64,000 nt of DNA from Pseudomonadota bacterium (GTDB taxonomy: Bacteria; Pseudomonadota; Alphaproteobacteria; 16-39-46), in assembly GCA_018242545.1 (NCBI GenBank), contig JAFEBT010000002.1, positions 4,973 to 68,972 on the forward strand. Reading direction: 5' to 3'. How positions within the stretch are numbered: position 1 is the stretch's first letter; each line of letters opens with the position of its first letter. The position numbers were made by a program, and so were the translations under genes. Under the pieces are notes generated by a model, which had not been told where the DNA came from, searched no databases, and was given only the letters and a program-made list of their open reading frames with translations. Positions 31,923 to 36,386 of the stretch are shown piece by piece.

Positions 31923-32114
31923 TATGTAAATTCTTTGTCTTGTTCCCTTTATGAAAGTAAGTTATCTTAATATAGTTCTAAAAAATTAATTCAAAAACAA
32001 AATACAGGGAGCACTTTTACCATGAAATCATCTCTTTGTCGTTTTGCTTTAATCTCTCTTCTTTCTCTAAGCGCAGGAGCTCAAAATCTTTATGCTCTCC
32101 AATCTGAATCATTG
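31923..32114 (+). repeat. duplicated promoter/5'UTR/signal-peptide block (copy 1) of the secreted paralog family
   Basis: ~190 bp near-identical to 34549-34739 (gtaaattctttgtcttgtt...tatgaaagta.gttatcttaata...gggagcacttttac.atgaaatcatctctt...caatctgaatcattg). Confidence 0.8.
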
Positions 32115-34364
32115 CATACCCCTAAGCCCAACAATTTATCTGATGCTCCCTCTGAATTTTTTGTACCTACTGCTGATAGCCTTTCGAATAAGGACATAAA
32201 TCAAGACAGGACGGTTTTACGTCAAAACCCTCGCCCACCCATTCTATCGTCCGACCCAACTCCTTCAAATACCTCGAATGTAAGCTCCTCTCAAGCGTCA
32301 CTACGCAGCGATCAAGAAAAATTAATTAACTTTTCGGAAAGGGTTATCGCCGCTCTTAAAGAAAAAAGAATCATCTCGTTAGATTCTTCTCTGCAAAACC
32401 AAGAGACTATTGACGTCATTAACAGCCAATTGTTTAACCTTTACCATCGAAATGGAACTTTTTCGCCTTTAGAAAATGCCATAATGGTCTTTACAAAAAT
32501 AGATAGAGCTGCCAAAGCGCATCACTTAGAACTATCTGGTCCTTTTATTACATATTGTTTTGAAGTCGTTCATTTAGAACATCGATCGCTTGCCCCTATA
32601 AATCTCATTGAAATTGAAAGCATACTCGATAAAACAGCAGCGAAATTTAAAGTTTTATCACAGGATCTGAGACCAAAAATTACCCGTGCTTTTTTAAATA
32701 AAAATATTATTTTCCAAAGTTCATCTTTCCAAAACCAACAGATTGTTGATACGGTTATGCTGCATATGATGAATATTCAACTCCACACTGGAAAGCTTCC
32801 ATCTTTAGAAATGGTTACAAAAATTGTTAAAGAAATGAAAATTGCGAGTAAAGCGCGTCCCTTAGTGTTCTGTGGCCCTTTGATTAATTACCTTTTTGAA
32901 AAATTGCGTCAGGCAGATCTTGGACCTCATGAAGTTCTCAGTGCATCTGAAATAAGAGAAGTTCTTAATAAAGCAGTAAGTGAAATGAGAATTCTCCATG
33001 AAAATCCTCTTCTTATTAACCCATCTCTAACAAAAAAAATTACCGAAGCTCTTTCTAAAGATAATATTCTTCCCATGACGCCAGATTATTCTTCAAAAAG
33101 GAAAGAAATTATTCAAGCTATTATATTGCATATGCTGAATGTTCAAGGGCAAAGTGGACACCTTCCCTCTTTGGAAAATGTCATGAGAATAATTAAAGAA
33201 ATGTCAACGACTGCTAAAGAACAACACTTAGAGTTCTCTGGCCAAATGATTGCTTATTTTTTTGAGGTATTGCACGCATCAGGTCATGGACCTCATGACG
33301 CTCTTAGCCCATCTGAATTGCAAAACACCCTCACTCATGCAGCACATGAAATGAAAGCCCTAAAGAATGAATTCGAAAATGAGACCCATCAAATTGCAAA
33401 AATAAAATATGAATTTGCCTTAAATCTAATGTATAAGGCTCTATCCCAAGATCAAGTTCTTTCTTTGGCTCAGCTCCGTACTGAGACGAATCGTTCTCTT
33501 GATCCTGCTATAGAAATTTTGTCCAAGCATCATGTCCCCATAAATATTGAGACAGTCGCACTAATCCATTCTATTGAGGAAACATATAAGAGCTCCCCGA
33601 AAGAACAGAAAACAAAAATTGATGAGACTGTTGGTATAATAAAAAGCTTAACGCGTAAACTTCAGACAATATATAAAGATGAGTCACTCCCTAAAGGTTC
33701 TTTAGAACATGCGTATGATCTTTACAGTGAAGGATTACCAATATACTTGATCACAAAAACTTCTCTTCATCCTAATTATTTTCCTATATGGAGGACACGC
33801 ACCCTAGCTCAACAAGAGGCTGTGAGTACTAACCTTGTGAAACTAGGAGAGAATTCAACTCTTACGCTTAAAGACAAAGAATTATTAAGCGTAGTGGAAG
33901 AGCGTTATCATAATTCCGGACTTTCACAAGATGATATTCCTGCGGAAATTGCAAAAACAATTTCTCTTTTAAGAAAGGAAAAGGTTTCTACTCAACAGAC
34001 AAATGATATAATAGATGAAATCAGAAAAGCTTCTTCCAGTACGTTAAAAAACCTTGCACAATTTGTCAGCATACGCTTGAGAACCTCATCTCATTCCAAT
34101 GGTCAGCCTTATATATATGATAAAGTTCCAATTATTCATGGTGCACCTGTTTTAAAAAACGAACGCCTAGGATATACTGCTGGCCAACCCTCTTCCCATT
34201 TGCCGCAAGGACAAAAAGTAAATCCTAGAGCGGCTACTTCTTCTCATCCAAAAACGACAATTAGATCGGCAAGCACAAGGAAACAAGATTCTTTGAAACC
34301 TTCTCGTTCTCAAAGACAGGAACCAAGCTCAGAAAGAGAAAAAGAAACACGGTCTATAAAATAA
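32022..34364 (+). CDS. secreted repeat-containing protein (780 aa), paralog A; candidate effector
   Basis: Signal peptide MKSSLCRFALISLLSLSAGAQNLYA. Three internal ~90-aa repeats (…GxLPSLENVxxIIKEMxxxAKxxHLEFSGxMIxYFFEVLHASGHGPHDALSPSELQNTL…). Basic S/T/P/Q-rich disordered C-terminal tail. Confidence 0.8.
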   Translation: MKSSLCRFALISLLSLSAGAQNLYALQSESLHTPKPNNLSDAPSEFFVPTADSLSNKDINQDRTVLRQNPRPPILSSDPTPSNTSNVSSSQASLRSDQEKLINFSERVIAALKEKRIISLDSSLQNQETIDVINSQLFNLYHRNGTFSPLENAIMVFTKIDRAAKAHHLELSGPFITYCFEVVHLEHRSLAPINLIEIESILDKTAAKFKVLSQDLRPKITRAFLNKNIIFQSSSFQNQQIVDTVMLHMMNIQLHTGKLPSLEMVTKIVKEMKIASKARPLVFCGPLINYLFEKLRQADLGPHEVLSASEIREVLNKAVSEMRILHENPLLINPSLTKKITEALSKDNILPMTPDYSSKRKEIIQAIILHMLNVQGQSGHLPSLENVMRIIKEMSTTAKEQHLEFSGQMIAYFFEVLHASGHGPHDALSPSELQNTLTHAAHEMKALKNEFENETHQIAKIKYEFALNLMYKALSQDQVLSLAQLRTETNRSLDPAIEILSKHHVPINIETVALIHSIEETYKSSPKEQKTKIDETVGIIKSLTRKLQTIYKDESLPKGSLEHAYDLYSEGLPIYLITKTSLHPNYFPIWRTRTLAQQEAVSTNLVKLGENSTLTLKDKELLSVVEERYHNSGLSQDDIPAEIAKTISLLRKEKVSTQQTNDIIDEIRKASSSTLKNLAQFVSIRLRTSSHSNGQPYIYDKVPIIHGAPVLKNERLGYTAGQPSSHLPQGQKVNPRAATSSHPKTTIRSASTRKQDSLKPSRSQRQEPSSEREKETRSIK

Positions 34365-34391
34365 ATGTATTTGATTTTTTAGCAATTTTTT

Positions 34392-34413
34392 CCCCAGGAC
34401 GCGTGTCCAGGGG
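34392..34413 (+). terminator. hairpin CCCCAGGAC-gcgt-GTCCAGGGG after paralog A
   Basis: Read directly. A paralogous hairpin follows paralog B. Confidence 0.35.
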
Positions 34414-34548
34414 AAAACTCTCCTATATAGAAACTGTCTTTCAGATTAAACTCTGTGTTTTATACTTAAAATACACGGCACTCTTTCTTTTTCTTGCTTT
34501 TCTTTTTTTTGCAGCATTTTTCGGGATAGAAAGAATATGGTACATAAG

Positions 34549-34739: not shown

Positions 34740-36248
34740 TCCGCCCCTGTCTCCCCGGATAATCCCTCTGACTTTTTTCTTCCTAGAGCGGATAGTGGTC
34801 TAGATAGACAGACTATAGAAAATTCAAATATTCCAAGCACTTTAGAAAGACGTGTAGAATCTTCCTCTTCGCTTCACGCAGAAGCAGTCCCTCTAAAAAG
34901 CAATAAAGAATGGGAAGGCCTGCAAGATGACGTTATTTCTGCTCTCTCAGAAGAAAAAGTTATCTCAATTACGCCCAGCTCATCGGAAAAAAATGAACAA
35001 ATTATCGATGCTGTTTTGGAGCATATAACGAAAATTAGAGAAGAAACTGGAAATTTTCCATCTTTGAAAAATGTCGCAATCATCATTAAAGAAATGGCAA
35101 ACGCCGCTAAAACGCATCACATAGAGTTCTCGGGTTCAATGATTACTCACTTTTTTGAGATATTACATGCATCCGGACATGGCCCCCAAGACGCTTTAAG
35201 CCCCGATGAATTAAAAAATACACTCGAGAGAGCAGCTGGTGAAATAAAACTCTTAATACAAGGTTTCAAAGATAAAACCCCTCAAATTGCAGAAATAAAA
35301 CTTCAAATTGCCCTAAAATTAATGGATGATGCACTCAAACAAGAAGGTAAGGTTCTTTCTCCAGAAGCCGTTCGTGCTTATACAAATAAAGCTGTTGATG
35401 ATGCAATTAAGATTTTGCATCAGAACGATGCTCCTATAACCCCTGAAACCGTTCTAATGATACATTCTATTGTAGAGCAGTATAAAGACCATCCAGAAGA
35501 AAAAAAGAGAAATCTTGAAAAGGCTTTCAAGCACATACATGCCGTAATGCAGAAGTTAAAAGAAATATATGGGAAAGAGGATTTCATTTCTGAAGGTACT
35601 TTTGGACGTGCGTTATATCTTCATAATCAAGGAGTGCCTCTCACCAAGTTAACGAAAACTGATCTTACCCCAAAGTATATGACTGTATGGGCGCCGCGCA
35701 TCAAAACCCAACAAGATAATGTAAGCAAGTATCTTAAGAAACTCGGGGAAAATCCAAGGCTCACCCGGGATGATAAAAAATTTCTTATTGCGACTGAAGA
35801 ACATCTTTATAATTCAAATCTTTCACAGGCAGAAATTACTTTGGAAGTTGCAAAAGTAATTGTACTTATAAGGAAAGAAAAACTTTCTCCAAACCAAACA
35901 AAAAGAATCATAGATGACATCAGGAAGGCTCCTTCGGGAAAATTAAAAAACCTTTCTGATTTTGTACAAACACGCTTGAAAGCTTTACCTAAACCTGAAG
36001 CTGAGCCTAACAGAGGAACCCCTTCTACACTGAGTAAGATTCCAAGCATTTATGGCCACAGTTTAAAAGAAAACGTTGGGAAGCAACATTCCTCAACGTC
36101 TTCCTATACGGGACAGCCCAAGACACGTCCCACATCTCAACCAAAAAAACCCGCAACACAATTTCATTCACAACCAAAAGAAATAAGTGCTCCAAAAGAA
36201 GCACCCCGCCCACAAACAGAAAGAGAAGAAATGCAGCGCACAAAATAA
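34647..36248 (+). CDS. secreted repeat-containing protein (533 aa), paralog B; candidate effector
   Basis: Signal peptide MKSSLSRFALISLLSLSAGTQNLYA. One copy of the ~90-aa module (FPSLKNVAIIIKEMANAAKTHHIEFSGSMITHFFEILHASGHGPQDALSPDELKNTL). The C-terminal ~250 aa are homologous to paralog A, and there is a basic disordered tail. Confidence 0.8.
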   Translation: MKSSLSRFALISLLSLSAGTQNLYALQSESLSAPVSPDNPSDFFLPRADSGLDRQTIENSNIPSTLERRVESSSSLHAEAVPLKSNKEWEGLQDDVISALSEEKVISITPSSSEKNEQIIDAVLEHITKIREETGNFPSLKNVAIIIKEMANAAKTHHIEFSGSMITHFFEILHASGHGPQDALSPDELKNTLERAAGEIKLLIQGFKDKTPQIAEIKLQIALKLMDDALKQEGKVLSPEAVRAYTNKAVDDAIKILHQNDAPITPETVLMIHSIVEQYKDHPEEKKRNLEKAFKHIHAVMQKLKEIYGKEDFISEGTFGRALYLHNQGVPLTKLTKTDLTPKYMTVWAPRIKTQQDNVSKYLKKLGENPRLTRDDKKFLIATEEHLYNSNLSQAEITLEVAKVIVLIRKEKLSPNQTKRIIDDIRKAPSGKLKNLSDFVQTRLKALPKPEAEPNRGTPSTLSKIPSIYGHSLKENVGKQHSSTSSYTGQPKTRPTSQPKKPATQFHSQPKEISAPKEAPRPQTEREEMQRTK

Positions 36249-36277
36249 CAAATATTATTCTTTATTAATTTTATCCT

Positions 36278-36299
36278 CCCCAGAACATATATTCTGGGG
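36278..36299. terminator. hairpin CCCCAGAA-catata-TTCTGGGG between the convergent paralog B and the 507-aa gene
   Basis: Perfect 8-bp stem read directly. It could act bidirectionally. Confidence 0.35.
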
Positions 36300-36386
36300 A
36301 AAATCTCTTTTAGAGAGCAAAATAAAAAGTTTAAACAGCCAAAAAAACCCTTTCACAAAGTATGTCGAAAACCTTCTATCTCCCCA

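Follow-up and report, generated by a model that had tools for sequence, protein, structure and literature searches.

What are the two neighbouring genes for repeat-bearing proteins that lie between a type VI secretion system (T6SS) cluster and the ribosomal protein genes rpsI-rplM in an alphaproteobacterial genome, and how did they come to share nearly identical 5' ends although the remainder of their homologous coding sequence has diverged? We addressed this question in a 64-kb stretch (64,000 nucleotides) of contig JAFEBT010000002.1, referred to here as the window, in which the two genes, A and B, follow each other on the forward strand and constitute a tandem paralogous pair that is confined to one lineage. 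A preliminary description had portrayed them as a segmentally duplicated family of secreted repeat proteins with copied promoter, signal peptide and terminator, expanding by repeat-number variation and typical of host-interaction effectors; the features that it attributed to A and B could all be located, at levels far above chance, but not all of its interpretation could be retained. The reading that we favour, and that we consider on the whole probable, is that A and B are a lineage-specific pair of tandem genes in a plastic genomic island, that their products are non-enzymatic helical-module proteins exported through Sec, and that their 5' signals have been kept alike by gene conversion.

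Both genes have to be regarded as real. In sequence with a guanine plus cytosine (GC) content of ~36%, a stop-free reading frame would arise by chance with a probability of ~1e-18 at the length of A and of ~1e-12 at that of B, and in both genes the motif GGGAG is followed by 10 nt and the ATG start codon. BLASTP aligns residues 295-778 of A with residues 45-532 of B at 41% identity over 497 aa (E = 9e-107). Across the module and the C-terminal domain the proportion of differing synonymous sites exceeds that of non-synonymous sites (pS = 0.52, pN = 0.32, Fisher p = 3e-8), and the ratio of the corresponding rates (dN/dS) between A and B amounts to 0.44-0.48 in the folded and to 0.58-0.70 in the disordered parts; with pS above pN and a dN/dS of ~0.45, both genes are under purifying but fairly relaxed selection. 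Spurious open reading frames (ORFs) or pseudogenes were ruled out by the ORF length, the dN/dS below 1, the Shine-Dalgarno sequence and the native GC content at third codon positions (GC3). Since GC and GC3 of A and B are in line with those of the core genes, composition gives no support to a recent foreign origin of the pair either.

The family comprises A and B themselves and nothing else in all databases searched, in agreement with the lineage specificity proposed at the outset. A word-indexed search of 5.8 billion protein clusters with B as query returned only A and B, both of them singletons from one 73.8-kb contig of an NCBI metagenome-assembled genome and annotated as hypothetical; with HMMER, an exhaustive comparison of a family profile with 1.84 billion representatives again recovered only the pair. 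Family scans of GTDB representative genome contigs and of JGI metagenome contigs gave no match, and the degenerate back-translated signal peptide RFALISLLSLSAG had 0 matches in metagenomes. The remark that the repeated module corresponds to no known domain proved equally sound: Pfam, NCBIfam, PADLOC, PHROGs and PDB sequence profiles yielded nothing above cutoff for A or B, and Foldseek comparisons of the A and B models with PDB, and of the B model with BFVD, produced no match at E <= 0.001. The best Foldseek matches were designed helical-repeat proteins (E = 0.035-0.2) with template modelling (TM) scores of 0.1-0.34, so that the fold was not assigned. As to Pfam, the best match was Gp-FAR-1 in B with 24.6 bits against a cutoff of 29.2; this match was rejected because it stays below the cutoff and is not reproduced in the paralogue A, where Gp-FAR-1 aligns to another region (aa 193-238, within the module array) at E = 0.68.

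Alignment and a profile made from the copies confirmed that A contains three modules and B one. The period of the unit, though, is not ~90 aa, as first described, which covers the conserved core only, but ~113-121 aa (~115 aa), comprising five predicted helices and 13 invariant positions in the alignment of the four copies. No further copy was detected by this profile in a six-frame translation of the window. The homologous C-terminal region that had been reported for both proteins was recovered by BLASTP (~245 aa); the possibility that it consists of degenerate modules was discarded after hhalign had given no significant match between module and domain. The tails are indeed basic, disordered and rich in Ser, Thr, Pro and Gln, with composition, net charge and a predicted local distance difference test (pLDDT) below 50 in agreement, and short motifs, K[IV]P.I[YH]G and P..ERE..R..K, are kept in both of them. 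The mature proteins would accordingly read, from the N-terminus, as a disordered linker of ~60 aa, one (B) or three (A) modules, the C-terminal helical domain and a tail of ~80 aa. In the AlphaFold2 model of B residues 88-450 form an all-helical core, with 10-residue pLDDT means mostly between 70 and 93 and lower ones (50-69) near residues 311-350 and 381-390; disorder is predicted for residues 1-87 and 451-533. The AlphaFold2 model of A is weaker than that of B and shows three such five-helix units ahead of the C-terminal helices also seen in B; pLDDT falls below 50 in residues 688-780 of A and 451-533 of B. A catalytic residue pattern common to all four module copies is absent, the histidines of the HASGHGP motif not being kept in repeats 1 and 2, and from this we infer a non-enzymatic binding or scaffold role, which the proteins may exert in the periplasm, at the cell surface or outside the cell.

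The relationship between the modules gives some insight into their history. The B module is 51% identical to the third copy of A, compared with 29-42% for every other pair of copies, and it also aligns to the first copy of A (BLASTP E = 5e-36, in an alignment that takes in the signal peptide). Its proximity to the third copy implies either that the triplication is older than the split between A and B or that repeats 1 and 2 have evolved faster. Under roughly equal rates, the internal triplication would have preceded the A/B duplication and B would have lost two copies afterwards. A chimeric origin of the B module, by unequal crossover between repeats 1 and 3, was considered and is not supported by the identities over module thirds. 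BLASTP and module alignments hence support the view that the family arose by tandem gene duplication together with internal duplication of the module, but not that it is expanding by repeat-number variation: the module copies are old (29-42% identical to each other), and the identities of all copies (29-51%) show no sign of a recent change in copy number.

A very different picture emerges at the 5' ends. Positions 31891-32114 and 34517-34739 share 88% DNA identity over 224 bp, compared with ~66% in the other homologous coding sequence, and the upstream blocks listed in Table 1 lie within this match. The core block, from 31923 to 32114 in A, has 85 of 99 upstream and 89 of 93 coding bases identical, i.e. 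~91% over 192 bp, in keeping with the near-identical block of ~190 bp reaching into the first ~31 codons that had been noticed before; each half of it occurs exactly twice in the window, with 0 occurrences expected. Past codon 31 (position 32114 in A) the similarity drops abruptly. Synonymous divergence (dS) in codons 1-31 is only 0.09 (2 differences in 23.7 synonymous sites), whereas the module and C-terminal domain reach 0.88-0.89 and the linker and tail 1.37-1.43 (Fisher p = 2e-5). The low dS of the signal-peptide codons against 0.9-1.4 elsewhere points to gene conversion of a 5' cassette; a recent conversion or recombination tract of ~190-220 bp would have made upstream region, ribosome-binding site and signal-peptide codons alike in both genes. 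Given that the tract spans the upstream region as well as the first 31 codons, expression and export signals are now common to both genes.

One might instead suppose that the near-identity is held by selection on a common regulatory element, such as an operator, an alternative-sigma promoter or a small-RNA or translation-control site that extends into the coding sequence. The block does cover non-coding DNA and the translation start region, co-regulation would profit both genes, and the B block is unusually unstructured (z = +2.2), as would fit an accessible start region. However, the synonymous sites are nearly unchanged over 31 codons while the non-coding part is more diverged (14 of 99 positions), a pattern that argues for a single recent homogenisation instead of site-specific constraint, and the 3' boundary of the block is abrupt. 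Moreover, neither block has a significant RNA structure (z = 0.09 for A, and the above value for B) or an Rfam match, by which a structured or known cis-regulatory RNA was ruled out, and a consensus scan found no sigma-70-like promoter inside the block. Selection on a regulatory element therefore seems to us an unlikely cause of the 5' identity, and gene conversion is preferred. The same scan bears on the copied promoter of the preliminary description: the copying is evident, the promoter is presumed, because no sigma-70 consensus site was seen.

Paired hairpins are found ~30 nt past each stop codon. The pattern CCCCAG...CWGGGG occurs in the window only at 34392-34413 and 36278-36299, with 0.01 occurrences expected. 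Downstream of the hairpins stands AAAA(C/T)CTC and no clean U-tract, for which reason a terminator role is plausible but not canonical.

The N-terminus of both proteins reads MKSSL[C/S]RFALISLLSLSAG[A/T]QNLYA↓LQ (the arrow marks a candidate cleavage site) and by inspection has the plausible n-, h- and c-regions of the Sec signal peptide that had been recognised earlier: the n-region MKSSL[C/S]R carries a charge of +2 and is followed by the core FALISLLSL (F8-L16), and the highest Kyte-Doolittle 10-mer value, 2.19, is reached at residue 8. Candidates for type-I cleavage are SAGA↓Q in A only and NLYA↓L in both. The lipobox [LVI][ASTVI][GAS]C is absent from A and B and no cysteine occurs beyond the h-region (C6 of A lies within the n-region and is a Ser in B), so that the two proteins are not lipoproteins. 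A secB gene is located in the window (18670-19230). Most likely, the Sec pathway takes A and B through the inner membrane, and the signal peptide is cut off after ~20-25 residues.

Taken together, the following course of events may be proposed. An ancestral multi-module gene would have been duplicated in tandem, B would subsequently have lost two modules and, much later, the 5' tract of ~190-220 bp would have been homogenised between the copies via gene conversion. Each gene would presently form a separate transcription unit: an upstream block that includes a Shine-Dalgarno sequence precedes the codons for a type-I Sec signal peptide, and a hairpin follows at the 3' side. The coordinates of all these elements are compiled in Table 1.

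Table 1. Features of genes A and B, with positions counted from the first nucleotide of the window
Feature	Position	Strand	Remarks
Gene A	32022-34364	+	780 aa; signal peptide, disordered linker, three five-helix modules, C-terminal helical domain, basic disordered tail; NCBI hypothetical protein JSS34_00715
Gene B	34647-36248	+	533 aa; signal peptide, linker, one module, C-terminal domain, basic tail; NCBI JSS34_00720
Conserved upstream block of A	31891-32021 (core 31923-32021)	+	Shine-Dalgarno GGGAG at 32007-32011; presumed promoter and 5' untranslated region
Conserved upstream block of B	34517-34646 (core 34549-34646)	+	GGGAG at 34632-34636
Putative signal-peptide codons of A (aa 1-25)	32022-32096	+	inspection and hydrophobicity; cleavage candidates after A20 (AGA↓Q) or A25 (LYA↓L)
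Putative signal-peptide codons of B (aa 1-25)	34647-34721	+	
Module copy 1 of A (aa 103-214)	32328-32663	+	alignments; profile i-Evalue 4.7e-49 (profile made from these four copies); 34% identity to B module
Module copy 2 of A (aa 216-325)	32667-32996	+	BLASTP to B module E = 9e-19; 36% identity
Module copy 3 of A (aa 336-450)	33027-33371	+	nearest copy to B module, 51% identity
Module of B (aa 91-206)	34917-35264	+	
C-terminal helical domain of A (aa 451-700)	33372-34121	+	homologous to B 207-450
C-terminal domain of B (aa 207-450)	35265-35996	+	
Basic Ser/Thr/Pro/Gln-rich disordered tail of A (aa 701-780)	34122-34361	+	net charge +10; KVPIIHG and P..ERE..R..K motifs
Basic tail of B (aa 451-533)	35997-36245	+	net charge +6
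3' hairpin of A	34388-34417	+	TTTTCCCCAGGAC-GCGT-GTCCAGGGGAAAA; -18.4 kcal/mol, z = -2.97
3' hairpin of B	36277-36300	+	TCCCCAGAA-CATATA-TTCTGGGGA; -15.8 kcal/mol, z = -3.23; listed by terminator scan

Turning to the surroundings of the pair, the genes tssB, tssC, hcp, hcp, tssE, tssF and tssG (22289-28991) are followed, after ~580 bp, by an ORF of 684 aa (702 aa from the first TTG), after a further 396 bp by A and after another 282 bp by B; downstream of B, an orphan ORF of 507 aa, convergent to B and likewise equipped with a signal peptide, is followed by rpsI-rplM. A and B are consequently not located directly downstream of the baseplate genes, as had been stated, being separated from tssG by the 684/702-aa ORF and ~1 kb of intergenic DNA. 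The gaps of ~580, 396 and 282 bp and the individual hairpins give each gene the appearance of a separate unit, and A and B do not look operonic with the T6SS genes.

Comparison with two related lineages, whose TssF is 85-86% identical to that of the window, speaks for a plastic interval between tssG and rpsI. Both lineages keep the flanks, secB...tssB-tssG on the one side and prmA-uvrD-nupC-rmuC-corC-rplM-rpsI on the other, and in both the similarity to the window stops exactly at the stop codon of tssG. Contigs of at least six independent assemblies end 0.2-0.6 kb past tssG and 0.3-1.2 kb past rpsI, and per lineage both contig ends carry one sequence of ~27-36 bp in inverted genomic orientation: GTATCCTCTCsATATCGCCGGGTAA at ~7650-7680 of locus L002 and ~11150-11180 of L005, and GTATyCAGrTGACGGyC...GATTAyTC at ~8500-8540 of L009 and ~12160-12201 of L013. 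These shared contig-end sequences are probably the terminal repeats of insertion sequences (IS), and such inverted IS-like ends make the tssG-rpsI interval appear as a hot spot of insertion or rearrangement. The window itself was also inspected for these ends and contains neither sequence. No A/B-like sequence occurs in the loci compared (L001-L018); since the relatives' loci do contain orthologues, at 43-45% identity, of p248, a 248-aa secreted orphan encoded in the window, relatives of A and B would have been detectable there. On balance we thus place A and B in a plastic island between tssG and rpsI, as a neighbour of the T6SS cluster and not as a part of it.

Further features were observed in the window. 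The 507-aa ORF (36387-37910, minus strand), convergent to B, begins with a strong signal peptide (MKKYLLAFFLYLIFQGVFFPLFA↓MESEDP) and has an orthologue of 36-44% identity beside rpsI in one related lineage (L013, 11214-11815), where it is degraded: in three assemblies a frameshift and two in-frame TGA codons interrupt it. A second adjacent orphan pair, both on the minus strand (248 aa at 46510-47256, the p248 mentioned above, and 316 aa at 47308-48258), has signal-peptide-like N-termini; its members are distant paralogues (23% identity, E = 2e-8), and the orthologues of p248 are syntenic, standing beside prmA in the relatives' loci L005 and L013. An ORF of 216 aa (48733-49383, minus strand) has no Pfam match and a lipoprotein-type N-terminus (MKKPLLYTSLLALLSG↓C). 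In the window, secB and tssB lie ~3.06 kb apart (19231-22288), compared with ~0.79 kb in the relatives (L007-L011), the extra DNA harbouring a 466-aa gene (19569-20972, minus strand) with Schlafen/AlbA_2, HATPase_c_4 and winged helix-turn-helix domains that also matches a PADLOC pAgo-associated model (E = 6e-20).

The T6SS cluster of the window consists only of the seven genes named above, and the families of tssA, clpV, vgrG, tssJ, tssK, tssL and tssM have no match among the window ORFs scanned, which means that the remaining apparatus is encoded elsewhere or absent. The 684-aa ORF (29517/29571-31625, plus strand) has neither a signal peptide nor a Pfam domain above cutoff; its last ~100 aa weakly resemble HicA_toxin (E = 8e-4 for the domain alone) and include a GGKGSH motif, and this HicA-like C-terminus is by far the part best conserved in its sole homologue, P0005 (49% identical overall). 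Judged by these features, the ORF could be a candidate T6SS cargo toxin. P0005 is encoded on a contig of 9.6 kb (L004) beside genes for transporters of the major facilitator superfamily, with no T6SS gene and no A/B-like gene there.

It might be argued that A and B themselves belong to the T6SS locus, as cargo effectors, as periplasmic immunity proteins, for example against the product of the 684-aa ORF, or as accessory envelope components. They share their strand with tssB-tssC-hcp-hcp-tssE-tssF-tssG, follow tssG at a distance of ~3 kb and stand behind an ORF with a weak HicA-like C-terminus, and T6SS immunity genes often have signal peptides and often stand in tandem arrays; in position, strand, tandem paralogy and signal peptides the pair thus resembles T6SS effector/immunity arrays. 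T6SS cargo, on the other hand, is loaded in the cytoplasm and normally lacks a Sec signal peptide, with which the Sec-type N-terminus of A and B is incompatible, and domain scans of A, B and the flanking ORFs detected no PAAR, VgrG, Hcp-fusion, MIX, Rhs or adaptor (DUF4123/DUF1795/DUF2169) domain. A size of 533-780 aa, an architecture with disordered tails and their own transcription signals set them apart from typical immunity proteins and from such arrays. Against a HicA-like toxin, which would act in the cytoplasm, the immunity protein would not be periplasmic, and the homologue of this nearest candidate effector has, on its 9.6-kb contig, neither A/B-like nor T6SS neighbours. The linkage is not conserved in relatives, where homology ends at the tssG stop codon. 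Sec signals, independent units with their own 5' block and 3' hairpin, the intervening ORF and gaps, and the non-conserved linkage together make a cargo, immunity or accessory role in the T6SS very improbable, and a functional link to this system, suggested by the proximity, is not supported.

More weight may be given to a fuller version of the host-interaction idea of the preliminary description, in which an intracellular or protist-associated symbiont would direct A and B at its host as effectors; the proteins would pass the Sec pathway and then an outer-membrane step and bind host components with their helical modules and basic tails. The genes are orphans that evolve fast (dN/dS ~0.45-0.7), have a modular make-up and the look of secreted products, and occupy a variable island; the GC content of the genome is low (~36%), and the window contains a nucleoside transporter and several other orphans with signal peptides. 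The T6SS is widespread in Holosporales-like alphaproteobacterial symbionts and is regarded as a likely device of host interaction (PMC11909080), a group in which the present genome is, however, not placed. Against this suggestion, no data here point to a host or a symbiotic lifestyle, and at least one near relative stems from an environmental metagenome; genes of fatty-acid synthesis, aroA and a phosphofructokinase gene are likewise present in the window. Domain scans revealed no eukaryote-like domain, no outer-membrane secretion route was identified, and the family, being absent from close relatives, cannot be a core symbiosis factor. We accordingly regard a role as host-interaction effectors as possible but doubtful, preferring exported binding or scaffold proteins of a single lineage. 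Less probable still is a wider proposal, in which the pair would establish a family of five-helix modules with a new structure, acting as exported host-interaction proteins of a protist-associated alphaproteobacterium, and in which the ~190-bp 5' end (promoter, 5' untranslated region and signal peptide) would be a portable cassette for expression and export, similar to that of the vsp genes discussed below, kept by gene conversion and also fused to unrelated mature domains elsewhere in the genome.

Some caution should nevertheless be exercised towards the reading favoured here, against which the following points weigh. With two sequences, gene conversion is formally inseparable from a recent swap of 5' ends or from unusually strong selection at the nucleotide level. 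Export is called from inspection and hydrophobicity of the N-terminus. The AlphaFold2 alignments held only 2-4 sequences and the mean pLDDT was 64 and 55; with such thin alignments and low pLDDT the lack of a fold match is weak evidence. The contigs of the relatives end in the island, and the absence of A and B from these lineages rests on protein databases and not on closed sequence. Finally, adjacency to the T6SS cluster could still reflect co-regulation.

If truly exported, A and B enlarge the set of lineage-specific secreted proteins, the least understood fraction of the genomes of uncultured alphaproteobacteria, by an orphan family whose helical module is unassigned. The locus is, in addition, a clean small example of how partial gene conversion may keep the expression and export signals of diverged paralogues identical. 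No long-standing question is touched by this finding, and the position next to a T6SS does not hold up against the relatives.

The family is new and orphan, but familiar in kind. As in helical repeat and solenoid proteins (TPR/Sel1, HEAT/ARM, spectrin-like, vinculin/talin-like and designed ones), its members are all helical and modular with a tandem module; the unit of ~115 aa with five helices differs, however, from the ~34-47 aa of TPR, HEAT and ARM repeats and from the three helices in ~106 aa of spectrin, and it has no Pfam or PDB sequence match. The tandem repeat proteins (TRPs) of Ehrlichia, an example of secreted effectors with tandem repeats in intracellular alphaproteobacteria, are acidic, contain short serine-rich repeats and leave the cell by type I secretion without a Sec signal. 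They share with A and B that both are lineage-specific, repeat-bearing, equipped with disordered regions and presumed to leave the cell, whereas the modules of A and B are folded and helical, their tails basic and their N-terminus Sec-like, and homology between the two is lacking.

The closest analogy in gene organisation is found in the vsp genes of Mycoplasma bovis, the vlp genes of M. hyorhinis and the lipoprotein genes of Borrelia with an "upstream homology box" (UHB). The blocks of promoter and signal peptide are highly conserved between vsp genes. Each vsp gene possesses a promoter region of ~150 bp and a signal peptide of 75 bp (PMC10504702). Differences exist: the A/B cassette is present in only two copies in 64 kb, lacks a lipobox and has no sequence homology to those systems, and the repeats of A and B are long (~115 aa), folded and old (29-51% identical) in place of short, near-identical in-frame repeats; an invertase, an invertible promoter or a slippage tract was not found, and neither inverted repeats nor a recombinase flank the A/B cassette. 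What unites them with the vsp, vlp and UHB genes is the arrangement of neighbouring paralogues with a conserved upstream and signal-peptide block (~91% identity over 192 bp in A and B, against ~66% elsewhere), divergent mature regions and internal repeats of variable number, and recombination between copies, as we suggest for the 5' ends of A and B, is part of the biology of those systems.

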